Of a stretch of DNA of 64,000 nt, positions 12,669-24,453 are shown in pieces. Both the position numbers and the translations under genes were made by a program. Numbering within the stretch: position 1 is the first letter of the stretch; every line of letters starts with the position of its first letter. The notes beneath the pieces were generated by a model. It saw nothing but the letters and a program-made list of their open reading frames with translations, was not told the origin of the DNA and did not search any database. Origin of the DNA: Kiritimatiellia bacterium (GTDB lineage Bacteria > Verrucomicrobiota > Kiritimatiellia > RZYC01); contig JAQVYB010000003.1 of assembly GCA_028708815.1 (NCBI GenBank), forward strand, positions 6,267-70,266, in the 5' to 3' direction.

Positions 12669-13448
12669 ATGAAAAAAATGATTATGGCGGGTTTGGTTCT
12701 TTTCGGCTTGCTTCAGGGCGCACAGTCGGAAGAGCAGGTAGACACACTGGTTCAGGTCTCTTCTTTGGATGCCCTCTTGAGTGGAGCCTACGATGGCGTT
12801 ATGACCTTTGCCGATCTGAAAAAGTTCGGCACCGCCGGCATTGGCACCTTTGATCGGTTGGATGGTGAGATGCTGCTGCTGGATGGCATGGTTTATCAGA
12901 TGAAATCCGATGGTTCCGTGGTGCAGCCGGAGGATTCCATGACCACGCCCTTTGCCGCCGTTTGCTCTTTTCGAGCCGAAGAGCAAATGAGCACGGAGAT
13001 CACAATGGACTACGAGGCCTTCAAGGCGGCCCTGACCACGTGGATTCCGCAATCCGGCGCATTGATTGCATTTAAAGTGGACGGGTCATTTCACACGATG
13101 AAAACGCGGGTGGTGCCGGGGCAGCAAAAGCCTTATCCGCCGCTCTCGGAAGTGGCCAAAACCCAGCCGGAATTTGAATGCACAAACGTGACGGGAACGC
13201 TTGTCGGGGTACGGTTTCCCTCGTACATGAGCGGCGTCAACATGGCCGGATACCATTTTCATTTTCTGAGTGAAGATCGGCAGTTCGGTGGACATGTGCT
13301 TGCCTTTGAAATGAACCCAGGGGCCCGCTGCGAAGCCAATCTCTTCGAGCAGTTTCTGATGAAAAGCCCGCCGTTGGAGGGCGGACTCATTCAGGAGCAG
13401 AGCCTCTCCCGCGACCAGTTCGACGCCCTGCTCCAACAGGTGGAGTAA
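12669..13448 (+). CDS. Alpha-acetolactate decarboxylase family protein with signal peptide
   Basis: AlsD motifs (GIGTFDRLDGEMLLLDGMVYQ; HFHF); ATG at 12669 preceded by GGAG; N-terminal signal peptide. Confidence 0.65.
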   Translation: MKKMIMAGLVLFGLLQGAQSEEQVDTLVQVSSLDALLSGAYDGVMTFADLKKFGTAGIGTFDRLDGEMLLLDGMVYQMKSDGSVVQPEDSMTTPFAAVCSFRAEEQMSTEITMDYEAFKAALTTWIPQSGALIAFKVDGSFHTMKTRVVPGQQKPYPPLSEVAKTQPEFECTNVTGTLVGVRFPSYMSGVNMAGYHFHFLSEDRQFGGHVLAFEMNPGARCEANLFEQFLMKSPPLEGGLIQEQSLSRDQFDALLQQVE

Positions 13449-13759
13449 GAATGCTTCTCCAGACGATTCGCCGTTCAAACCAATCTCTTCGACCCCAATG
13501 TCCGCAGCAAACGGATTGAGGCGGCGATGGGAACAAATAATCATCACAGGGATTTCGAGACCTGTTTGAGTTCGTTCGGACTCAGGCGTTTGATCATATG
13601 GGCGTGTTCACTTATTTTCCGAAACCAGACATAGACACAAACAATGTAACAGTTGTGGCGCTACTGTTGTTAAAAACATGAAATAACCCTTGACCGATGA
13701 GTGGAAATATGGAATATCAATAAGCAGTAAGTCGAATACTGTTATACGAGATATTCATT

Positions 13760-14350
13760 ATGCCGCGAAATGAGACCATCAAAAACCTCGTTGAGATCCA
13801 GATCGGATACCAGCTTCGTCAGAAGCCAAAGGCCGATGATGACGGGAAAATCCTGCTGATTCAGCTCAAGGACATCAACACGAGCCGCACCCAACTGGAG
13901 TTCACGGAAGAAACCCTTCGTTTCGATCCGAAGCGCAGCATTGAAAGGCAACTTCTGGAAGAGGGCGATGTCCTCTTTATGGGTAAAGGTTCCAAACCGT
14001 TCGCCTGCGTCGTTCGCAATCTGCCCGCGCCGGCAGTGGCAACCGGCATGTTTTTTATTCTACGTCCGAAGATGAAGCGCATCCTGCCGGAGTATCTGGC
14101 CTGGGTGCTGAACAGCAAACGGACCTTGGACACACTGATGATCGCTTCGGGAACAGGTGTAGCGATGCCGGTGATTCGGCGGACGGAACTGGAAAAAGTT
14201 TCAATCCCTCTGCCCCCGCTGGAAACTCAGAAAAAGATCGGCGAGTTGCAGGAGCTGAACAGGCAGGAAATGGATTTGATAAACCAGCTGAGCGAACAGC
14301 GACAGATTCTCACCGAAGGAATCTGCCGCTCCCTGATGGAAAACTTTTAA
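13760..14350 (+). CDS. hsdS: Type I restriction-modification specificity subunit, half-size (single target-recognition domain)
   Basis: 196 aa; TRD followed by conserved HsdS coiled-coil (LPPLETQKKIGELQELNRQEMDLINQLSEQRQILTE); directly upstream of hsdM; AT-rich, characteristic of TRDs. Confidence 0.75.
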   Translation: MPRNETIKNLVEIQIGYQLRQKPKADDDGKILLIQLKDINTSRTQLEFTEETLRFDPKRSIERQLLEEGDVLFMGKGSKPFACVVRNLPAPAVATGMFFILRPKMKRILPEYLAWVLNSKRTLDTLMIASGTGVAMPVIRRTELEKVSIPLPPLETQKKIGELQELNRQEMDLINQLSEQRQILTEGICRSLMENF

Positions 14351-14364
14351 ACAGGAGAGCAATC

Positions 14365-15867
14365 ATGAATGACCAGCAGATTAAAAACGATATTTACAAT
14401 GTGGTGTGGAGCGCGTGCGACACGTTTCGTGGCACCATCGAGCCGAGCACCTATAAGGATTACATCCTGACGATGTTGTTTGTGAAATATCTGAGCGACG
14501 TGCGCAAATCGAAGATCGCCGAATATAAGAAACAGTACGACGGCAATGTGGTGCGCATTAATCGGGCGATGAGCAACGAACGCTTCTCGATTCCGGAGGA
14601 CTGCACTTTTGACTATTTATATGGAAAACGCAACGATCCCGAAATCGGGCAGACCATCAACACGGTGCTCGAAAAGATTGAGGATGCCAATAAAGCCAAA
14701 CTGCACAATGTGTTCCGCAATATCGACTTCAACAGCGAACACAACCTTGGGAAACCCCGCCAGCGCAATGAGCGGCTGAAAAATCTGCTGGACGACTTTA
14801 ACAACCCCAAGCTCGACCTGCGTCAGGAGCGGGTTGGCCACCTCGATATTATCGGGGATGTCTATGAATATCTGATCGCCAAATTCGCCTCGCAGGCCGG
14901 GAAAAAAGCGGGCGAATTCTACACGCCGTCGGAAGTGTCCGAAACATTGGCGCGGCTGGTGGCCCCCGAAAAAGGAAGCCGCATCTGCGATCCCACTTGC
15001 GGATCGGGGTCGTTGCTGATCAAAGCGTCCAAGCAGGTCGGAAGCCGCGATTTTTCGCTCTATGGACAGGAGATGAACGGTGCCACCTGGGCGCTGTGCA
15101 AAATGAATATGTTCCTGCACGAGGTGGACAGCGCCCGCATTGAGTGGGAAGACACCCTGCGCGAGCCGCAACTGCTCGAAGGCGACAGCCTGATGAAATT
15201 TGATGTGGTGATCGCCAACCCGCCCTTCTCGCTCGACAAATGGGGGCAGGAGATGGCGGCGATAGATCAATACAACCGGTTTGAGCGCGGCATTCCGCCC
15301 AAAAGCAAAGGCGACTGGGCGTTCATCATGCACATGCTCGCGACGGCGGTGGAAGGCAAAGGGCGCGTCGGTGTGGTGGTTCCGCACGGGGTGCTTTTCC
15401 GGGGTGCGGCGGAAGGCGCCATTCGCCAAAAAGTGATTGAAGAAAATCTGCTGGCCGGAGTGATCGGCCTGCCCGCGAACCTGTTCTACGGAGCGGGGAT
15501 TCCGGCGGCGCTGCTGATCTTCGACAAGGCGCGCAAACCGAACGGCAAAGAGGATGTGTTCTTTATCGATGCCTCCCGCGAATTTGAGCAGGGAACCAAC
15601 CAGAACGTGCTCAAGCCGGAGCACATGGACAAAATCGTCGAGACGTTCCAAAAGCGGGAGAAAATTGAGAAGTACAGCTATTCGGCCACCTTCGAGGAGA
15701 TCAAAGAGAACGACTTCAACCTGAACATTCCGCGCTATGTGGACACCTTCGAGCCGGAACCGGAAGTGGATATTCCCGCCGTGCAAAAGACGATTGTGGA
15801 ACTGGAAACCGAGCTGTCCGGAGTGCGGGCGAAGATGGATGGCTATTTGAAAGAGCTTTGGTTTTAA
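14365..15867 (+). CDS. hsdM: Type I restriction-modification DNA methyltransferase subunit M (N6-adenine)
   Basis: HsdM N-terminal domain (IWSACDTFRG), SAM motif I (ICDPTCGSGSLL), motif IV NPPFS. Confidence 0.9.
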   Translation: MNDQQIKNDIYNVVWSACDTFRGTIEPSTYKDYILTMLFVKYLSDVRKSKIAEYKKQYDGNVVRINRAMSNERFSIPEDCTFDYLYGKRNDPEIGQTINTVLEKIEDANKAKLHNVFRNIDFNSEHNLGKPRQRNERLKNLLDDFNNPKLDLRQERVGHLDIIGDVYEYLIAKFASQAGKKAGEFYTPSEVSETLARLVAPEKGSRICDPTCGSGSLLIKASKQVGSRDFSLYGQEMNGATWALCKMNMFLHEVDSARIEWEDTLREPQLLEGDSLMKFDVVIANPPFSLDKWGQEMAAIDQYNRFERGIPPKSKGDWAFIMHMLATAVEGKGRVGVVVPHGVLFRGAAEGAIRQKVIEENLLAGVIGLPANLFYGAGIPAALLIFDKARKPNGKEDVFFIDASREFEQGTNQNVLKPEHMDKIVETFQKREKIEKYSYSATFEEIKENDFNLNIPRYVDTFEPEPEVDIPAVQKTIVELETELSGVRAKMDGYLKELWF

Positions 15868-15900
15868 AGTGGATATGACGGAGAAGGAACGGATAGAAGG

Positions 15901-17355
15901 ATGAACCTGAAACAAATACAGGCAGATATTGAACAGGGCGAAGGGTTGCACCGCGAATTCAAAGAAGCAGGCAATCAACTGCCACGTAACCTGTTCGAAA
16001 CAATCTGTGCCTTCCTGAACACAGATGGAGGCTCAATATTCCTCGGAGTCGCAAATGACGGCACAATCACCGGCATTGATCCAGATGCCGCCACACAAAT
16101 GAAAACGGATTTAGCCAACCTCTCGAACAACCCTCAAAAACTCGACCTTCCTTACCTGCTGTTCCCTCATGAATTTGAACTGGAGGGGAAAACCATCATC
16201 GTCGTCCAGGTACCGCTCAGCTCCCAGCTGCATAAGACTGGTGGACACATCTTTCTGCGAAGCGAAGACGGGGACTATCGTGTACTGGGCACGCATCAGC
16301 TTGCCGGACTCATCAACCGAAAACTAAGCCTGTTCACCGAACAGCGAACACTGCCTTTTGTCACCATGGAGCACCTGCGACCCGAACTGTTCGAACGGGC
16401 ACGCCGCCTCATGCGCTCGACCAACTCGAAACACCCGTGGGCCGATCTCAGCAATGAAGAGCTGCTCCGGATTGGCGGGTTTTACTCCGAAGATCGCGAG
16501 ACAGGAAAAGAATGCCTTACGCTGGCGGCGGTTCTCATGTTCGGCACCGACCTGGCCATCCAGCGGGCTGCACCGGCATATAAATTCGACTGCCTGCTCC
16601 GCCGCGACAATGTGGATCGCTACGACGACCGCGTGATGATCTACACCAACCTGATTGATGCATACGACCAAATGATGGAGTTTGTCGAAAAACACCTGAA
16701 TGATCCCTTCTATCTTGAAGGCGACATGCGAATCAGTCTGCGTGATAAAATTTTCAGAGAAGCCATCTCCAACATCATCTCGCACCGCGAATATACCGGC
16801 GGTGCGCCGGCACGGTTAATGATCTACCGCGACAAAGTCGTTCTCGACAACCCCTGCACCCTGCACCACTTCGGAGAAATCACCCCGGCCAACCTGCGCC
16901 CGTTTTCAAAGAACCCCACCCTCTGCAAATTCATGATCCAGCTCGGTCGCTTCGACCAGCTCGGTTCCGGCGTCACCAATATCAACAAATACCTGCCGCT
17001 CTATGCCAAAGGAGCCAAGCCGGTTTTCAACGAAACTCACCACGGCTTTGAACTGACCATCCCACTGGCAGAGGCCCAAGTCACCGGGGAAGTCACCGGG
17101 GAAGTCACCGGGGAAGTCACCGGGGAAGTCAAACGCCTGCTCTCCGTTATGAATGGCGAAATGAAACGAACCGAGATTCAAAGCGCACTGGGCCTTAAAC
17201 ACGAGGATTACTTCCGCGAAGCTTATCTGCTTCCGACGATCAAGCTGGGGCTGGTTGAAATGACCATCCCGGATAAGCCGCGCAGCAGTAAACAGAAATA
17301 TTGCCTCACCGAAAAAGGGAAACAACTGCTGGAGAGTGAAAACAGAACGAAATGA
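15901..17355 (+). CDS. AlbA_2/Schlafen-like putative DNA-binding ATPase (COG2865-like) with C-terminal wHTH; contains VTGE x4 repeat
   Basis: N-terminal AlbA_2 signature (EFKE...FLNTDGGSIFLGV), central RecG-C-terminal-like/HATPase_c_4-like region, C-terminal helix-turn-helix; stop overlaps next start (ATGA). Confidence 0.6.
   Translation: MNLKQIQADIEQGEGLHREFKEAGNQLPRNLFETICAFLNTDGGSIFLGVANDGTITGIDPDAATQMKTDLANLSNNPQKLDLPYLLFPHEFELEGKTIIVVQVPLSSQLHKTGGHIFLRSEDGDYRVLGTHQLAGLINRKLSLFTEQRTLPFVTMEHLRPELFERARRLMRSTNSKHPWADLSNEELLRIGGFYSEDRETGKECLTLAAVLMFGTDLAIQRAAPAYKFDCLLRRDNVDRYDDRVMIYTNLIDAYDQMMEFVEKHLNDPFYLEGDMRISLRDKIFREAISNIISHREYTGGAPARLMIYRDKVVLDNPCTLHHFGEITPANLRPFSKNPTLCKFMIQLGRFDQLGSGVTNINKYLPLYAKGAKPVFNETHHGFELTIPLAEAQVTGEVTGEVTGEVTGEVKRLLSVMNGEMKRTEIQSALGLKHEDYFREAYLLPTIKLGLVEMTIPDKPRSSKQKYCLTEKGKQLLESENRTK
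17080..17127 (+). repeat. Perfect 4 x 12-nt in-frame tandem repeat (gtcaccggggaa; VTGE x4) inside the AlbA_2-like gene
   Basis: Read directly from sequence. Confidence 0.9.
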
Positions 17356-18371
17356 GCAAAAACCAATACAATCCCGAAATTCATCACCGCCGGTCGATCC
17401 GGCTGAAGGGGCACGACTATGCCGGGGGCGGGTTGTATTTTGTGACGATGTGCGCGCATCGGGAGTTTATCGAAGCAACACGGGGCTCTCCGTTCCTGCC
17501 GCTTCACAAACTCATCCAGGAGCGCATGCAGATCACTGCTGAAAAATGTCCCCACATGGAATGGGGCGAATCGGTGATTATGCCGGATCATTTTCATGCG
17601 CTCATCCGCATTCGAAAAGGCGGCCACCAATCGCTGGGCGATATCATCGGCGGCTTCAAAGCGGCGGTAACGCGCGAATTTCGCAAAAGCATTCGGGGCG
17701 AAAGGGGCGAGAGGGGCGAGAGGGGCGAGAGGGGCGAGAGGGGCGAGGCAGGCCTCGCCCGTACGGGCGGCATCAATGCCGCCCCTATCAATGCCGCCCC
17801 CATTTCTGCCGCCGTTTCCGATAGAATGCGCGTCTGGCACCGCAATTATTATGAAATGATTGTGCGCACGCCGGAGGCGGAAAAGAAGATCGCCCAATAT
17901 ATCCAGATGAATCCGTGGCGGTGCGTGCAGCAACTGAAAAAGGGCCTGCGCGGCATGGGCAACCCTGCACTATGGACCGCCCAAAAGCTAGGTTTACTGT
18001 GCAGTCGCAATGCGCCGCGCCCCAGGAGCCTGCCAAACGCCCCAGTCTATTTGAGCGGCTTCCACTCCCCTATGGAAAAGGAGATTTTCAAAAAGCTGCT
18101 GGAGCTGAAAAAACCAATCATCTGGTGCCCTGCATGGGGTCTGAAACGGGCCGCATTCGCACCCGGCGTGCGCGAAGCGCTTGAGGAAAATCGCATGCTG
18201 ATTTTAGAAATGCACGACACCGCAGGCGATCTGGCCGCGGCTGAACAGCGCAATCGGTTCGTGCTGGAACACGCCGACAAACTCTGGCTCCCGCACGTCA
18301 CCCCCGGCGGCATGCTCGATCGGCTGGTAAGTGAATTGAAAATGAAAAATTTTGAATTAGGAGTTTTATGA
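17352..18371 (+). CDS. Fusion protein: REP-associated tyrosine transposase (RAYT/TnpA_REP, HuH-Y1) domain with internal RGE x5-6 repeat, fused to a C-terminal DprA/Smf-like (SLOG) Rossmann domain
   Basis: N-terminal ~200 aa align motif-by-motif to E. coli RayT from memory (RRSIRLKGHDY..GGLYFVT; PDHFHALI; WHRNYYEMIV...YIQMNPW). C-terminal ~150 aa follow DprA Rossmann pattern (CSRNAPRPRS; YLSGFHSP; LILEMHDTAGD; RNRFV; VTPGGMLDRL). ATGA overlaps at both ends (17352 and 18368). Confidence 0.5.
   Translation: MSKNQYNPEIHHRRSIRLKGHDYAGGGLYFVTMCAHREFIEATRGSPFLPLHKLIQERMQITAEKCPHMEWGESVIMPDHFHALIRIRKGGHQSLGDIIGGFKAAVTREFRKSIRGERGERGERGERGERGEAGLARTGGINAAPINAAPISAAVSDRMRVWHRNYYEMIVRTPEAEKKIAQYIQMNPWRCVQQLKKGLRGMGNPALWTAQKLGLLCSRNAPRPRSLPNAPVYLSGFHSPMEKEIFKKLLELKKPIIWCPAWGLKRAAFAPGVREALEENRMLILEMHDTAGDLAAAEQRNRFVLEHADKLWLPHVTPGGMLDRLVSELKMKNFELGVL
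17694..17747 (+). repeat. 9-nt in-frame tandem repeat (gagaggggc; RGE x ~6) inside the RAYT-DprA gene
   Basis: Read directly from sequence; 4 perfect units plus degenerate flanking units. Confidence 0.85.
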
Positions 18372-19678
18372 ACGACCGAAATAAAAATAGACCGGGCTAC
18401 AAGGAAACCAAAGTCGGGTGGATTCCTGAGGAGTGGGGAACGAAATCAGGTGAAGAAATAACGGCTCTAATAAGCAAGGGCGCATCCCCAAGATGGCAAG
18501 GGTTTAACTACACAACTGAAGGCATGTTATTTATCACCAGTGAAAATGTGCGCGATGGAAAACTTGATATCAGTAGACCAAAGTTTCTTCCCGTCGAGTT
18601 CAACGACAAGATAAAAAGAACCCAACTCAAGAAATATGACATTCTAATAAACTTGGTAGGAGCCTCAATTGGTCGATCATGTCTAATCCCGATCGACCTA
18701 AGCCTCGCAAACGTAAACCAAGCAGTGGCTGTATTTCGCCTCAAAGACAAACGCATAGCATCATATATGGCCGTTTTCTTTCAGATGTCAGACACAGTTA
18801 AGCGCATCTTAGACATGCAAGTAGACGCAGCGCGTCCAAATCTCTCTCTATCTAATTTACGTGACTTTAAATGCCCTCTTCCCCCAATCCTTGAACAGGA
18901 GGCAATTGTGGAAGTGTTGGGGTGCTGGGATGAGGGGCTGGAGACGATTGAGAACCTGATTGAGGCGAAGAAGCTGCGCAAAAAGGGGCTGATGCAACAA
19001 CTGCTGACGGGAACCCGGCGGCTGCCGGGGTTTTCCAAGGATTGGAAAACTGTGAAGCTGGGAGATATTTGCACCGTGGTAAAAAAAGCGGTCGGCGAAA
19101 AGAAAATCATTCCCATGAGTCTTTCGGCAGGCAAAGGGTTTGTCGCGCAAGCCGATAAATTTGGCCGCGATATTTCCGGCAAGCAATATTCGAAATACAC
19201 CCACCTGACTAAAGGATGCTTCACTTACAACAAAGGCAATTCAAAAACGTTCCCGCAGGGTTGCGCCTACCTGCTGGAAGATTATGACGAAGTCGCAGTG
19301 CCGAATGTTTTTATCAGCTTCAAATTCGACGATGGAAAAGCGGATAACAAATTCTTTCAACAGGTCTTCGCTGCAAACATGCACGGAAAGGATTTGATAA
19401 AATTCATCAATAGCGGCGTTCGTAATGACGGCCTGCTCAACCTAAACACAACATGGTTTATGCGGATTACATTCAACCTCCCCACCCTCAAAGAGCAGAA
19501 GGCGATTGCAGCAGTGTTGGAAACGGCGGATGAGGAGATTCGTTTGCTGGAGGCGGAGCGCGATGCGCTGGCCGAACAGAAAAAGGGGCTGATGCAGAAG
19601 CTGCTGACGGGGGAAGTCCGTCTGCCGGCATTTCGGAAAAAACAGCCTGACAAGAAGCGGCAGGACTATTCGGAGTAA
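18368..19678 (+). CDS. hsdS: Type I restriction-modification specificity subunit, full-length (two TRDs)
   Basis: 436 aa; two TRDs each followed by conserved spacer (LIEAKKLRKKGLMQQLLTG and LEAERDALAEQKKGLMQKLLTGE); low-GC TRD regions. Confidence 0.85.
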   Translation: MNDRNKNRPGYKETKVGWIPEEWGTKSGEEITALISKGASPRWQGFNYTTEGMLFITSENVRDGKLDISRPKFLPVEFNDKIKRTQLKKYDILINLVGASIGRSCLIPIDLSLANVNQAVAVFRLKDKRIASYMAVFFQMSDTVKRILDMQVDAARPNLSLSNLRDFKCPLPPILEQEAIVEVLGCWDEGLETIENLIEAKKLRKKGLMQQLLTGTRRLPGFSKDWKTVKLGDICTVVKKAVGEKKIIPMSLSAGKGFVAQADKFGRDISGKQYSKYTHLTKGCFTYNKGNSKTFPQGCAYLLEDYDEVAVPNVFISFKFDDGKADNKFFQQVFAANMHGKDLIKFINSGVRNDGLLNLNTTWFMRITFNLPTLKEQKAIAAVLETADEEIRLLEAERDALAEQKKGLMQKLLTGEVRLPAFRKKQPDKKRQDYSE

Positions 19679-19682
19679 GATT

Positions 19683-22600
19683 ATGAGCGAAGACAGAATA
19701 CCCTACACAGCCACCCCGAGTTACCTGGAGGCGGTGCAGTCGCAGCTTCCCGCGTTGCAACTGCTGATCAATATGGGCTGGGACTACCTAAGCCCCGAGG
19801 AGTGCGTTGCGCTGCGCGGCGGACGGTTGAGCACCGCTCTGCTGGAGCCGGTGTTGCTCGACCATATCCGCGAGAACTGCCGGTTCGATTTCAAGGGGCA
19901 GACGCATGCCTTTACGGAGAATGCCATTCAATCCGCTGTGCAGGCGCTGAAGAATGTCCGCGCCACCGGGGCAACATTCCAGAACGAAGAGGTGTATGAT
20001 CTGCTCTGTCTGGGCACCAGTCAGCCGCAGACGGTGGAGGGCGACACGAAGAGCTTTGATCTGAAATTTATCGATTGGGAGAACTGGGAGAATAATACCT
20101 ATCACTGCACGGCTGAGTTTAAGACGGAGCGAATGGGACAGTCGAAGCACTACATCCCGGACATTGTGCTGTTTGTGAACGGCATTCCGGTGGTGGTCAT
20201 CGAATGCAAGCGGGCGGCCTATACCGACCCGAACAAGAAGCCGATTGATCTGGCAATCGCCCAACTTGGCGATTACCAGCAAGGCGACGGCATCCCGCAG
20301 GTATTCCTGACAACGCAATTGCTGCTGGCGCTGGCCCGCGACAAGGCGGAATTCGGAACAACCGGCACACCACGCAAGTTCTGGAGCCGGTGGAGGGAAG
20401 AATATATCGATGAGCAAATCCGCGACCTGATCGGCATCACGGTGCCCAATGATCAACTCGCCAAGTTGCTGGACGGCCCATTTGCCACCAGCAAGCAGCC
20501 GTTTAAGAAGCTCCTGAACGAGGGACGTTCGATTTATGAGCAGGATCGGACACTGTATGGAACGTGCAGGCCGGAACGGCTGCTGGAGCTGATGTTTCAG
20601 TTTATTCAGTATGATAATGGCCAGAAAAAGATTGCCCGCTATCAGCAGTATTTTGCGGTGAAAGACATTCTGAAACGAGTCACCGCCGCACCGGAAGGCG
20701 AACAGAGAGCCGGTGGCGTGGTCTGGCACACACAGGGCAGCGGAAAGTCGCTGACGATGGTGATGCTGGCTAAGGCTCTGGCGATTTCGAAACGGATCGA
20801 GAACCCGCGCATCATTCTGGTGACCGACCGCATCGATCTGGATGACCAGATTTACGGGACGTTTAAGGCGTGCGGGATGAAGGTGGAACAGGCGAGTACC
20901 GGTGCGCATCTGATCGAGATGCTGCAGGATGGCAAGCGGCATATTATCACGACCCTCATCCATAAATTTGCCGCTGCAACCGCCCGTTCGGCTATCGAGG
21001 TAGATCATAATACCTTCGTCCTGGTGGATGAGAGCCATCGCAGCAACTACAGCGAGCACCATGCCCGGATGAAGCTCGCACTCAAGGGAGCCTGTTTTAT
21101 CGGGTTTACGGGCACGCCACTGGCCAAAGATCCCAAAAAGAACACCTTCTTTAAATTCGGCGAACTGTTTAAACCGGCCTATACGATTGCGCGGGCTGTG
21201 GAGGATAAAGCGGTTCTGCCACTGATTTACGAGGCACGGCATGTCCCGCAGCCGGTTCAGAAAGAGGCGATCGACCGTTGGTTTGAGCGGCTGACCAGCT
21301 CCCTCACCGAAGCGGAACGAGCGGATTTGAAGCGGAAATATTCTTCTGAAACGCAGCTCAACAAAGCGGCCCAGAAAATCCGGATGGTGGCGTGGGATGT
21401 GAGCCTTCACTACTCGATGGCTTATCAGGGCACGGGAATGAAGGGGCAGTTGGTTGCTCCGGACAAAGAAGCCGCACGACTATACAAAAAAACACTGGAT
21501 GAGTTCAGCATGGTCACCAGTGAGGTGCTCGTGTCCGGACCCGGGACCCATGAAGGGGAAAGCAGGAACCCTGAAGCAACAGCCGAAGAAAAAGTGTTCT
21601 GGCAGGGGATGATGGATCGCTACGGCTCTGAGGAGAAATACAACAAGCAGCTTATTAACGCGTTCAAAAAGGCAGAGGAGCCGGAAATCATTATTGTGGT
21701 TGATAAGCTTTTGACCGGGTTCGACGCGCCCTGTAACACGGTTCTTTACCTCGCCCGTACACTGAAAGATCACAGCCTGCTCCAGGCGATTGCCCGCGTG
21801 AACCGGCTTTATGAGGGTAAGGAATTCGGTCTGATTATGGATTACAGCGGTGTCATTGAGAATCTGGACGAAGCGATCGATTTCTACACCAATCTGGCCG
21901 ACTACAATCATGAAGATCTGGTCGAAACCGTGACCTATATCACCGATGAAGCCGCAAAGCTTCCCCAGCTCCACTCAGACCTGTGGGAGCTGTTCGCCGC
22001 AGTAAAAGGCAGCTCGGATACCGAAGTCTATCAGGAACACCTGCGGGACGAAGAACGCAGAGCGAAGTTCTACGAGCGGTTCAGTGCTTTCGCTCGGGCG
22101 ATGGCCCTGGCTCTTGCCTCAACGACATTCCTTGAGCAGACCCCGGAAAAACAAATCAATATCTACAAGAACGACCTGAAGTTTTTCCGTAACCTGCGGA
22201 CTGAAACAGCGATCCGCTTTCAGGAGCGCATTGATTTCTCTGAATACGAACCGAAAATCCGCAAACTTCTCGACACGCACGTTGGCGCGAGCGAAGTCGA
22301 ACAGCTTATTGAACCCATCGACCTGCTGAATACCGAGCAGCGCGAAGAGGTCCTCGGCAGAGAAGACCTGAGCGAAGAATCAAAAGCCGACATGATCGCA
22401 TCCGCCGCGCGACACAGTATCGAACAGGAGTTTGAGAAAGACCCTGCCTTTTTCACAAAATTCTCGAAACTGCTGGAGGATACCATCGAGGCATTGCATC
22501 AGAAGCGGATTCAGGCCGCTGAAGCGCTGGCAAAAATTAAAGATATTGCGATTAAGGTGGCCACGCATACCGATGAGGATGTGCCGAAAACGCTCGTTGG

Positions 22601-22889
22601 CCACGATATGGCGCGGCGGTATTACGGCACGGTTCAGGAAGAGTTGGCAGAATACACAACCGCGAAACCGGATGTGGGCGCAACCATTGCACTGGAAGTG
22701 GTCAAGCGTCTCAACCCACACAAAGTTCGTGACTGGACCAACAACACGGATGCGCTCAATGCCATGCGCCGTGAAATAGACGATATCTTCTTCGAAGCAG
22801 CAGATGAGTTCGGGTTGGAGTTTCCGTTGGAGCTGCAGGATAAACTAATCGATAAATGCCTGGAAATTGCGATTGCCAATGAAAAATAG
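19683..22889 (+). CDS. hsdR: Type I restriction enzyme endonuclease/helicase subunit R
   Basis: 1068 aa; HsdR N-terminal nuclease region, DEAD-box helicase motifs (GSGKSLTMV Walker A; DESHRS), C-terminal domain. Confidence 0.9.
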   Translation: MSEDRIPYTATPSYLEAVQSQLPALQLLINMGWDYLSPEECVALRGGRLSTALLEPVLLDHIRENCRFDFKGQTHAFTENAIQSAVQALKNVRATGATFQNEEVYDLLCLGTSQPQTVEGDTKSFDLKFIDWENWENNTYHCTAEFKTERMGQSKHYIPDIVLFVNGIPVVVIECKRAAYTDPNKKPIDLAIAQLGDYQQGDGIPQVFLTTQLLLALARDKAEFGTTGTPRKFWSRWREEYIDEQIRDLIGITVPNDQLAKLLDGPFATSKQPFKKLLNEGRSIYEQDRTLYGTCRPERLLELMFQFIQYDNGQKKIARYQQYFAVKDILKRVTAAPEGEQRAGGVVWHTQGSGKSLTMVMLAKALAISKRIENPRIILVTDRIDLDDQIYGTFKACGMKVEQASTGAHLIEMLQDGKRHIITTLIHKFAAATARSAIEVDHNTFVLVDESHRSNYSEHHARMKLALKGACFIGFTGTPLAKDPKKNTFFKFGELFKPAYTIARAVEDKAVLPLIYEARHVPQPVQKEAIDRWFERLTSSLTEAERADLKRKYSSETQLNKAAQKIRMVAWDVSLHYSMAYQGTGMKGQLVAPDKEAARLYKKTLDEFSMVTSEVLVSGPGTHEGESRNPEATAEEKVFWQGMMDRYGSEEKYNKQLINAFKKAEEPEIIIVVDKLLTGFDAPCNTVLYLARTLKDHSLLQAIARVNRLYEGKEFGLIMDYSGVIENLDEAIDFYTNLADYNHEDLVETVTYITDEAAKLPQLHSDLWELFAAVKGSSDTEVYQEHLRDEERRAKFYERFSAFARAMALALASTTFLEQTPEKQINIYKNDLKFFRNLRTETAIRFQERIDFSEYEPKIRKLLDTHVGASEVEQLIEPIDLLNTEQREEVLGREDLSEESKADMIASAARHSIEQEFEKDPAFFTKFSKLLEDTIEALHQKRIQAAEALAKIKDIAIKVATHTDEDVPKTLVGHDMARRYYGTVQEELAEYTTAKPDVGATIALEVVKRLNPHKVRDWTNNTDALNAMRREIDDIFFEAADEFGLEFPLELQDKLIDKCLEIAIANEK

Positions 22890-23649
22890 CCTCCAGCCAG
22901 ACCGTGTGATTGAATTCGGCAACCGCCGGATTCCGTATCGGTTGACACGGCAATCCCGAAAGCACATCCGTATTCTGGTTGCCCCTGATCTGACCGTGCG
23001 TGTTTCCGCCCCGCCCCGGGCAGAAGAGGAGCAAATCGAGCATGTTCTAAGGCAGAAAGCCCGCTGGATTGCACGGAAGCTGGACAAAGTCAGAAATTTC
23101 CACCCCCTGCCTGCGCCCAGGGAATATATCAGCGGGGAAACCTTCTGCTATCTGGGGCGCCAGTACCGACTGAAAGTGGACAAGGGAGAAAAAGCCCCCG
23201 CCAAACTAAAAGGGAAATTTCTCTATGTGACCGTGCCGGACAAACAGGATCGGGATGCAGTCAAAAAAGCTGTCGAGAATTGGTATAAGCAACGGGCGGA
23301 AGAAACGGTTTTGCGCTGTCTGGATAAATGCACGGGCGTGGCCGGACGGCACGGCATACCGGCAGCCGCGCTGACTCTGCGCAAAATGCGCACCCGCTGG
23401 GGAAGTTGCAGCAGCAAGGGGCGCATTACCATCAACACCAACCTGATTCAGGCTCCGATTCACTGCATTGAATACGTCATCATGCATGAGCTCTGCCATC
23501 TGAAGCACCACAACCACTCCAAAGCCTTCTATAAGCTTTTAACGCAATGTATGCCCGATTGGCCCAAGAGAAAAGAGGCCCTGCAGCGTGTCGTTATCCC
23601 GCGCGAAAACGGAAACACACCTGTGGGACAGCATGGGGTCACACGATAA
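22879..23649 (+). CDS. DUF45/YgjP-like (M48/WLM-family) zinc metallopeptidase, type I RM-associated
   Basis: HEXXH motif in HELCHLKHHNH; size and position match the metallopeptidase commonly encoded 3' of hsdR; ATG at 22879 overlaps hsdR stop by 11 nt. Confidence 0.7.
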   Translation: MKNSLQPDRVIEFGNRRIPYRLTRQSRKHIRILVAPDLTVRVSAPPRAEEEQIEHVLRQKARWIARKLDKVRNFHPLPAPREYISGETFCYLGRQYRLKVDKGEKAPAKLKGKFLYVTVPDKQDRDAVKKAVENWYKQRAEETVLRCLDKCTGVAGRHGIPAAALTLRKMRTRWGSCSSKGRITINTNLIQAPIHCIEYVIMHELCHLKHHNHSKAFYKLLTQCMPDWPKRKEALQRVVIPRENGNTPVGQHGVTR

Positions 23650-23747
23650 AACTATCCATCGAAAAAAAAGAAGCTCGTTGGTACGTCCTATACACTCCCG
23701 TAAGAGCAACCGTATCCGTGGAACAACGAGCCAAAAGAATACAATGC

Positions 23748-24263
23748 TCAGGCCTGGATATTCACCTGCATGCCGCTGCCATGCATGCTCACCGCATTTT
23801 TTACACTTTGTGGATCAATGAAGAGCGATGGGCGACGGGATGGATTCATCAGGCCTGCTCCGTGCTGCAGCATGTTGGTGTGCGATTTGAGCTGTTTCGT
23901 CAATCCGTCAAAAAGCGGGGTCATATCAATGTAGTTGGATGTCATTATCCGACCGGTGGATTCAGCAATCATAACAACCTCCGTTCAGCCGATTACGTCT
24001 ATGTGTTTGCCCAGCGTGGAACTGCTAACCATCCCTTGTATCGAGCGCGGACTGATGTGCGCGGAAGGGCTGATGGAGTTGTTGATCAGAGCAGACGAGG
24101 TTTGGAGGAGTCGACTGTAGCTGTTGGTGAACTTTTTCAGTCCGTCGAAGACCGGCTGAAAATTGGTGTAGAAGGCAAGATTCGGAACGCCGGACGCTTT
24201 TGTTATCATAAACCACTCCCAATGAAGTGCGGTTTCAGCTATCCGTGCCGCCTCAACCTTCAA
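23748..24263 (-). pseudogene. Low-GC gene with an internal duplication (P[VL]FDGLxK...LQ motif twice) interrupted by one in-frame TGA; possible pseudogene or readthrough
   Basis: Two minus-strand ORFs (23985..24263 and 23748..23972) are in the same frame, separated only by a TGA at 23985-23987 plus four sense codons; the halves share a repeated motif; local GC ~48%. Confidence 0.3.
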
Positions 24264-24453
24264 TCCATTGAAAGCTGTTTTTGAAGCAAGGCTATGTATA
24301 CGCCGTTTGTGGCATGCTGTTAAATATTTTGAATTTTAAACGTTATGTTTTTGCAGAACATGCGGTTGATGGGATACCCTCTTATCTCATAACCGCGTGA
24401 TTCGTGGCACAGGGGCATGGGGATCGTGGTCTTTTTGAGGGACAGGACAGGGA

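Follow-up and report, generated by a model that had tools for sequence, protein, structure and literature searches.

A RAYT-DprA fusion gene with REP-like hairpins, embedded in a type I restriction-modification operon

In a stretch of 64 kb from a Kiritimatiellia genome (the whole stretch is called the window in the following), an open reading frame (ORF) at positions 17352..18371 encodes a protein of 339 residues, which joins a class-2 TnpA_Y1/RAYT domain to a divergent DprA-type domain. Judged by its surroundings, the fusion gene is a cargo cistron, predicted to be co-transcribed, in the variable slot of a type I restriction-modification (R-M) operon. The gene carries hairpins resembling repetitive extragenic palindromic (REP) elements, and such hairpins are concentrated in and beside the genes of this family. 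We consider it an even chance (probability about 0.5) that the fusion protein is functionally coupled, in some way, to the R-M system as an accessory which processes single-stranded DNA (ssDNA). The original prediction for this locus had proposed a RAYT plus DprA/SLOG architecture inside an R-M operon, and our results support this proposal. It had missed what is most unusual about the gene, a low-complexity insert made of REP-like hairpins.

The predicted coordinates proved exact: the ORF, which like the whole operon lies on the plus strand, starts with the ATG at 17352 and its stop codon ends at 18371. All peptide motifs on which the architecture had been based (RRSIRLKGHDYAGGGLYFVT, PDHFHALI, WHRNYYEMIV...YIQMNPW, CSRNAPRPRS, YLSGFHSP, LILEMHDTAGD, RNRFV, and VTPGGMLDRL) were located in the translation. 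Among the best 120 clusters listed, homologues are 51-87% identical over at least 89% of the length; because these full-length homologues reach E-values of 1e-198, the ORF is not a chance reading frame.

The N-terminal domain (residues 1 to about 193, positions 17352..17930) is predicted to be an endonuclease/ligase of the REP-associated class-2 HUH-Y1 type, with His 80 and His 82 as the HuH residues and Tyr 183 as the nucleophile. The domain passed the fold test for HUH-Y1. Both sequence motifs, the HuH box P78-D79-H80-F81-H82 (17583..17597) and the helix of the catalytic tyrosine Y183-IQMNPW (17898..17918), are strongly conserved: D79, H80, and H82 as well as Y183, I184, N187, P188, and W189 are invariant in 46 sequences. 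A profile alignment to TnpA_REP of E. coli (4ER8) placed Y183 on Y115 and HFH on HMH. The helix contains "Y---NP", the signature that defines class 2 (TnpA_REP) in the published classification of TnpA_Y1 proteins (PMC6006769). Profile searches identified the expected families, with scores below the curated cutoffs: the NCBIfam model REP_Tyr_transpos (NF047646) matched with an E-value of 3.5e-14 and 52.9 bits (cutoff 80), and the Pfam model Y1_Tnp (PF01797) scored 20.6 for the fusion protein (cutoff 23). Y1_Tnp was found in all 46 aligned family members, with E-values of up to 3e-9 for other members.

The C-terminal domain (residues 190-339, positions 17919..18368) passed the fold test for a Rossmann fold of the DprA type, and its fold is that of the SLOG superfamily, which is common to YpsA, LOG, and ThsA-SLOG. 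The direct profile match that might be expected for a DprA domain was missing, as neither the fusion protein nor one of 46 family members matched PF02481 at E-values up to 10; a direct sequence search of the PDB with the fusion protein gave no match either, nor did a direct search with the stand-alone relative P0176. The link was established transitively. An exhaustive phmmer search with the C-terminal domain retrieved 589 cluster representatives, many of which are stand-alone proteins of 160-250 residues with 34-42% identity, matched at E-values of 1e-12 to 1e-13. When the domain and its stand-alone relatives were aligned, 54 of the 75 sequences matched Pfam DNA_processg_A (PF02481; best E-value 1.2e-17), and the joint profile detected the DprA proteins of H. 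pylori (E 6e-7) and S. pneumoniae (E 3e-3). In the joint alignment, C217-S218-R219 (18000..18008) falls on the G-T-R-R motif of DprA (the GSR/GTRR motif), and R300-N301-R302 (18249..18257) falls on its A-R-N-R, i.e. RNR, motif. Among 46 homologues, R219 is conserved in at least 90% and R300 is invariant. Because the joint profile, the stand-alone relatives, and the motif alignment all match DprA, the DprA/SLOG proposal is correct; more precisely, the domain belongs to a divergent DprA subfamily with the signature GFHSPME...CPAW/R, which is common to the short stand-alone proteins. A weak profile match to Hjc resolvase (E 0.16) was a false lead.

According to a study of ShosA, the arginines R52, R143, and R170 of H. 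pylori DprA bind ssDNA, and R52 and R143 are conserved in ShosA (PMC12961424). The latter is the DprA-like antitoxin of the anti-phage system ShosTA and binds ssDNA and RecA (PDB 8ZVA; PMC12961424); in our fold comparison it is the closest structural relative, at a sequence identity of 16%. R219 and R300 can be placed on two of the three arginines, R52 and R143, only via an estimated numbering offset of four residues.

The set of stand-alone DprA-like proteins (P0165-P0269; loci L093 and L179-L186, several of them on contigs too short to inform on the context) provides some observations of its own. One of these genes follows a GmrSD gene at a distance of 13 nt; the island around them also contains a PLD-SNF2 helicase, an MmeI-type methylase, and a QueC-like gene; a second is found near an Eco57I/MmeI-type methylase, and a third beside recR and recJ.

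The family of the fusion protein is largely confined to bacteria of the Planctomycetes-Verrucomicrobia-Chlamydiae (PVC) group, namely Kiritimatiellota, Lentisphaerota, and Verrucomicrobiota. The named homologues among the 120 clusters listed bear the labels Pontiella, Kiritimatiellae, Lentisphaerae, or Verrucomicrobia and are annotated as "transposase", "RayT", or "hypothetical". For the comparison of loci, a scan of one genome per species yielded 110 loci, of which 80 were kept (L013-L092, mostly PVC); an independent metagenome sample (L099-L178) comprised 64 non-duplicate loci. In these related loci, gene boundaries correspond to tblastn matches and neighbouring genes were delimited by a simple longest-ORF heuristic. 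Several genomes carry two or three paralogues, which are only about 45-60% identical to each other, near-identical copies within a genome were not seen, and in the window the gene has a single copy. Such a combination of low copy number and divergent paralogues is typical of class-2 TnpA_Y1 proteins, unlike active insertion sequences (IS) (PMC6006769). The family thus consists of low-copy, mutually divergent paralogues and is no active IS. A phage origin was rejected, as no relatives of the fusion protein were found in 2.9 million viral contigs and no PHROG matched it beyond the low-complexity insert.

This insert, which appears "collagen-like" in the protein, lies between the HuH box and the tyrosine helix and consists of a tandem repeat and two adjacent palindromes. 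The repeat unit GGGGCGAGA of 9 nt occurs 5.9 times (17695..17747), is in frame, and encodes (GER)n; it is an amplification of the 5' arm of hairpin 1, and the homologue with 87% identity lacks it. Hairpin 1 (GGGCGAGGC-ag-GCCTCGCCC, followed by the tag GTAC; 17741..17764) and hairpin 2 (GGGCGGCAT-ca-ATGCCGCCC, followed by CTA; 17765..17787) are perfect palindromes, and the doublet folds as ssDNA at -20.5 kcal/mol (z -5.1). The window contains only five perfect, G+C-rich hairpins of such size, two of them inside the fusion gene, and REP-like hairpins of the GGGCGA type were not found elsewhere in the window. A mobile R-M unit with REPs flanking the whole operon was therefore rejected.

The related loci show that this concentration of hairpins is a property of the family. 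In the genome sample, 95 GGGCGA palindromes were counted in 75 kb of fusion genes versus 15 in 1,047 kb of flanking sequence; ten of these 15 are located within 100 nt of the gene, which leaves only five units farther away in 1.05 Mb. The metagenome set contains 79 palindromes in 54 kb of genes, 14 at most 150 nt away from a gene, and 10 in 371 kb of flank, so that the hairpins are about 50-250 times denser in the fusion genes than in the flanks. At least one unit was found in 66 of 81 genes, whether linked to R-M systems or not. A tag is carried by 124 of 139 units, either GTAG before the hairpin or GTAC/ATAC/GAAC (NTAC/NAAC type) after it. Homologous genes also contain doublets with GTACGTAG between the hairpins, and in-frame tandem arrays of hairpins occur with 5 x 27 nt in L062 and with 4 x 30 nt in L017.

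With respect to the protein, the units occupy only a few loop positions (after residues 49, 61, 88-90, 110-138, and 219-226), and odd peptides of homologues such as RGEACLAP, GATQVSP, and GDTGVAR are explained by in-frame hairpins which encode them. Pairs of proteins whose genes have a common stem type are more similar than others (0.68 versus 0.61; the pairs are non-independent). In the four closest R-M-embedded relatives, the doublet is kept in place and the copy number of half-arms varies; among the closest relatives, the second hairpin shows a compensatory change (GGCAT/ATGCC versus GGGAT/ATCCC). From earlier work, PVC bacteria are known to contain REPs of the GTAG type, and in Opitutus terrae many REPs lie within genes (PMC3733652). 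As a side observation, a palindrome of the same family (GGGCGAGAT..ATCTCGCCC) is located in the hsdR region of L052 at positions 12828-12847; it is the only unit seen inside another R-M gene.

The second characteristic of the family is its association with type I R-M systems. The survey of gene neighbourhoods that had been suggested for the homologues showed that this context recurs: type I genes are present in the flanks of 24 of the 80 genome loci (10 of the 37 loci in which both flanks reach 5 kb or more), and the metagenome sample replicated this with 16 of the 64 loci, all on the same strand (8 of the 21 loci in which one flank reaches 5 kb or more). About 25-30% of the family members are thus found inside type I R-M operons. 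After clustering of 628 flanking ORFs, hsdM (19 loci), hsdS (19), hsdR (11), and YgjP (7) were the recurrent neighbours; apart from these and a few R-M cargo genes, the flanking ORFs are essentially unique. A random gene is estimated to have a type I operon within 10 kb in about 1% of cases. In every R-M locus the fusion gene is internal and lies on the operon strand. The architectures differ, with at least four gene orders (M-X-S-R, S-X-R, S-X-M, and X-S-M, X being the fusion gene), and the identity of hsdM to that of the window ranges from 24 to 92%. In a neighbour-joining tree without support values, R-M-linked members are interleaved with unlinked ones throughout the family. The two closest homologues (87% and 72% identical) are also located between hsdM and hsdS, with differing cargo neighbours. 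An example of the unlinked members is provided by two paralogues of Pontiella desulfatans, which are surrounded by sulfatase genes and sigma-factor/kinase genes.

In the window, profile searches confirmed the predicted type I neighbours and gave the following order. The operon begins with a half-size hsdS of 196 residues, which contains one target-recognition domain (13760..14350), followed by hsdM (14365..15867; TIGR00497, E 1e-88), a cargo gene with SLFN_AlbA_2, HATPase_c_4, and Fic-like_C domains (15901..17355; AlbA_2 gene in the following), the fusion ORF, a full-length hsdS of 436 residues (18368..19678), hsdR (19683..22889; TIGR00348, E 2.5e-133), and a YgjP-like metallopeptidase (22867..23649), which is the usual last gene in operons of this type. 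The start codon of the fusion ORF overlaps the TGA of the AlbA_2 gene in an ATGA at 17352-17355, and its own TGA overlaps the ATG of the full-length hsdS in an ATGA at 18368-18371, as had been noted before; these overlaps suggest translational coupling to both neighbours. Within the operon, neither promoter-like nor terminator-like sites were found beyond the level of shuffled controls, no structured RNA stood out from chance, and no Rfam family matched. The overlaps, the common strand in all R-M loci, and the recurrence in both samples agree with the earlier claim that the gene is an integral cistron of the operon and not a freshly inserted IS. The R-M island (13300-24300) has a G+C content of about 0.52 (0.49-0.55), its flanks of 0.58-0.63; the low value is consistent with horizontal acquisition. 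An ORF of 245 residues at the end of the island (23547-24284) overlaps the 3' end of the YgjP-like gene and has no match in Pfam or PADLOC. The arrangement of a half and a full hsdS also exists in the related operons L007, L008, L013, L045, L052, and L055.

The comparison with the closest related operon, L007 (hsdM 91% and hsdR 94% identical; 80-90% identity at the DNA level outside the AlbA_2 gene), argues against a further claim, namely that the AlbA_2 ATPase and the HuH-DprA protein form a pair. Because the operon of the window and L007 differ by a precise indel of the AlbA_2 gene, the two genes do not constitute a unit, and an obligate partnership was rejected, as the AlbA_2 gene is absent from most R-M loci. 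This gene shows a negative GC skew, unlike its neighbours. In L007, a DUF3800 gene is located on the other side of the fusion gene, and the start-codon region TTATGAACGA is duplicated at the junction. When the junctions around the cargo indels were aligned, the common sequence was limited to about 10 nt at the start codon, and no informative target site emerged. Three type I operons contain an ORF of about 193 residues directly upstream of the fusion gene (L014 1410-1991, L025 792-1385, and L045 9413-9994); its products are 49-56% identical among these loci and have no Pfam match. A conserved small partner gene was rejected, since this ORF is limited to three loci, or to five if the wider cluster is counted.

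A mechanism that could account for these observations is as follows. The DprA-like domain would capture ssDNA and hand it over to the HUH domain, which would cut and rejoin the DNA at tagged hairpins via a 5'-phosphotyrosyl intermediate at Tyr 183. By analogy with DprA and ShosA, the DprA-like domain may dimerise and contact RecA. The E. coli TnpA_REP is monomeric, and the additional domain could supply dimerisation and the handling of ssDNA. Since the enzyme would act preferentially in cis, its cognate hairpins would accumulate in or next to its own gene; action mainly in cis may have written, amplified, and homogenised the hairpins in permissive loops. Within an operon, the fusion protein would be an ssDNA-processing accessory to the R-M system and act on single-stranded intermediates, which are beyond the reach of the HsdMSR complex with its dependence on double-stranded DNA, be it by cutting these intermediates or by controlling restriction versus modification.

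We favour such a functional coupling, because the association is specific and recurs in unrelated architectures, the translational coupling appears tight, and the relative ShosA is defensive. In addition, the title of a study on H. pylori DprA, according to which this protein alleviates the restriction barrier for incoming DNA (PMC3597690), fits the coupling, and stand-alone relatives adjoin GmrSD and MmeI-type genes. A more specific version, which we regard as tentative and rather doubtful, is that R-M-coupled immunity is extended to ssDNA: the DprA-like domain would serve as a sensor of ssDNA or RecA filaments, and the HUH domain would cut or covalently cap the DNA. The ssDNA might stem from ssDNA phages, conjugation, transformation, or phage replication, and the hairpins within the gene might be recognition elements or an autoregulatory decoy.

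Several points weigh against a coupling. In about 70% of the members, the surrounding genes are unrelated ones with housekeeping functions (ClpB, DEAD-box helicase, sulfatases, sigma factor, ABC ATPase), no recurrent partner gene was found for members outside R-M operons, and a protein which is so often found without the R-M context would be independent of that system. The background of about 1% to which the association is compared is an estimate. The hsdM gene of L015 is 92% identical to that of the window, the fusion gene only 63%; these discordant phylogenies are equally compatible with gene flux and with function. Many other cargo genes without relation to the fusion gene (DUF3800, Fic, RhuM, KilA-N, Bro-N, PDDEXK_3) are found in this operon slot, so that it may be no more than permissive. 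None of the PADLOC 2023 models matched the fusion protein, and its identity with a known defence system was rejected. The DprA link is absent from the direct Pfam and PDB searches and relies on fold and transitive profiles, the structure model of the full-length protein is of moderate quality (pLDDT 71), and the support for an activity of the fusion protein comes from sequence and fold.

The strongest alternative is possible, if somewhat unlikely: the gene may be a selfish hitchhiker, i.e. a self-propagating, REPtron-like, promoterless passenger of operons, for which the R-M slot is a tolerant and horizontally moving site and which brings no benefit to the R-M system. This explanation agrees with the location of most copies in unrelated operons, often at most 120 nt behind an upstream gene on the same strand, with the discordance between the phylogenies of the gene and the R-M operons, and with the unrelated cargo in a generally permissive slot. 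Turnover and amplification of the hairpins resemble those of selfish elements, and some genes (e.g. L062 and L058) have hairpins just outside both ends. However, most copies lack IS-like ends, genomes contain divergent paralogues of about 45-60% identity instead of near-identical copies, and the catalytic and predicted ssDNA-binding residues are strongly conserved. Moreover, type I genes are the sole recurrent neighbours, other permissive or often-transferred operons show no enrichment, and the stand-alone DprA-like relatives adjoin restriction genes although they have no HUH domain.

Two further explanations assume a role in the R-M system and are both improbable. According to the first, the fusion protein would be a guarded suicide or back-up effector of the PrrC/RloC type, which is held inactive by the type I complex, is released when a phage disables restriction, and destroys ssDNA or replication intermediates. 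PrrC sits between hsd genes, and so does the fusion gene; in addition, the toxin-antitoxin system of ShosA, which is the closest match in fold, acts by abortive infection and is triggered through ssDNA and RecA. On the other hand, 70% of the members have no R-M partner that could hold them in check, enzymes of the RAYT type are specific for sequence and hairpin and are no general nucleases, and neither a conserved toxin-like partner nor a PADLOC match was found. According to the second, equally improbable one, the protein would alleviate restriction or protect DNA during uptake: like H. pylori DprA, its DprA-like domain would protect DNA that is taken up or has been repaired and would promote methylation over cleavage, and the HUH domain would process hairpins in ssDNA intermediates. 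The title on H. pylori DprA mentioned above, the conservation of the aligned ssDNA-binding arginines (their equivalence to R52 and R143 being based on the estimated offset), and the predicted co-expression with hsdM and hsdS via the ATGA overlaps are in line with this role; it leaves unexplained why an intact HUH domain is always attached, and no link of the divergent DprA subfamily to methyltransferases was found.

The remaining two explanations are very unlikely. A recombinase that rearranges the two hsdS genes and changes the recognition sequence could be suspected, as a half and a full hsdS flank the cargo slot and hsdS is the most divergent gene of the operon between close relatives; this shufflon was rejected, since the two hsdS genes have no common repeats longer than 12-14 nt, lie on the same strand, and contain no REP hairpins, silent hsdS cassettes are absent from the window, and many R-M loci with the fusion gene possess a single hsdS. 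An ordinary insertion of the IS200/IS605 type or a decaying transposase gene, as implied by database names such as "transposase" and "REP element-mobilizing transposase RayT", is largely refuted by the single copy in the window without tnpB and subterminal IS ends, the class-2 signature Y---NP in place of the Y---Q of IS200, the overlapping start and stop codons, the invariant catalytic residues, and the position kept in operons whose fusion genes are 63-87% identical.

In the literature searched, neither a fusion of a HUH/RAYT domain with DprA nor a RAYT in a type I R-M operon has been described, and the original prediction, too, knew of no described fusion of this kind; the concentration of hairpins in, and their exclusivity to, their own gene have no earlier description there either. 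We classify the family as a new subclass of class-2 RAYTs, which is distinguished by the DprA-type domain, the REPs within the gene, and the association with type I R-M systems. It is no categorically new system, because the proteins are already deposited in public databases under generic names.

The function of RAYTs and the origin and spread of REP hairpins have been in question since the link between the two was proposed around 2010. For this question, the family offers a compact test case, as the enzyme, a predicted domain of the ssDNA-binding type, and probable hairpin substrates are contained within about 1 kb, and natural variants provide compensatory and copy-number changes in the hairpins. 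The embedding on the same strand in many unrelated type I operons points to a so far unrecognised link between HUH/DprA ssDNA chemistry and R-M systems. If this link is functional, the most widespread class of bacterial immunity would gain an ssDNA arm; otherwise, the family would represent a selfish gene that has specialised in R-M operons. Should the tentative ssDNA-immunity version be true, R-M-coupled immunity of this kind would be new, and a RAYT would have been assigned a cellular role for the first time. Independently of these readings, hundreds of PVC proteins labelled "transposase" or "hypothetical" can be annotated correctly, and a short DprA-like subfamily, which is found beside restriction genes, has been defined.

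With RAYT/TnpA_REP proteins (YafM of E. coli, PDB 4ER8), the fusion protein shares the HuH motif and the Y---NP helix, the low copy number with divergent paralogues, and hairpins of the GTAG type. It differs from class-2 RAYTs by the additional DprA-type domain of 150 residues, by its frequent embedding in type I R-M operons, by scores below the NCBIfam cutoff, and by hairpins that reside in the ORF or within 150 nt, whereas RAYTs have hundreds of extragenic copies. The C-terminal additions reported for TnpA_Y1 proteins are Bac_DnaA_C, HTH_23/28, and subclass-specific tails, and the words "DprA" and "restriction" are absent from that report (Quentin et al. 2018, PMC6006769). In comparison with DprA/Smf (PF02481; PDB 4LJK, 3UQZ, 3MAJ), the fusion protein possesses the core only and has neither the SAM-like N-terminal domain nor the C-terminal winged helix. 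In contrast to ShosA, which is a free antitoxin, its DprA-type domain is joined to a nuclease/ligase domain and is not accompanied by a PRTase partner resembling ShosT. Unlike TnpA of IS200/IS605 elements (ISHp608, PDB 2VHG), the family lacks tnpB (none was among the recurrent neighbours in the 628 flanking ORFs), defined ends, and identical copies, and the tyrosine motif differs. PrrC, RloC, Fic, RhuM, and AbiEii genes occupy the same variable slot between hsd genes; the fusion protein is unrelated to this cargo, and most of its family is located outside R-M operons. Finally, the tags on the fusion-gene hairpins are the hallmark tags of GTAG-type REPs. Like known in-frame tagged palindromes, the hairpins are short, tolerated in surface loops, and encountered in PVC bacteria; unlike these, they are enriched about 50-250 fold in their own gene and at its edges, occur in about 80% of the members, and have lineage-specific stems.

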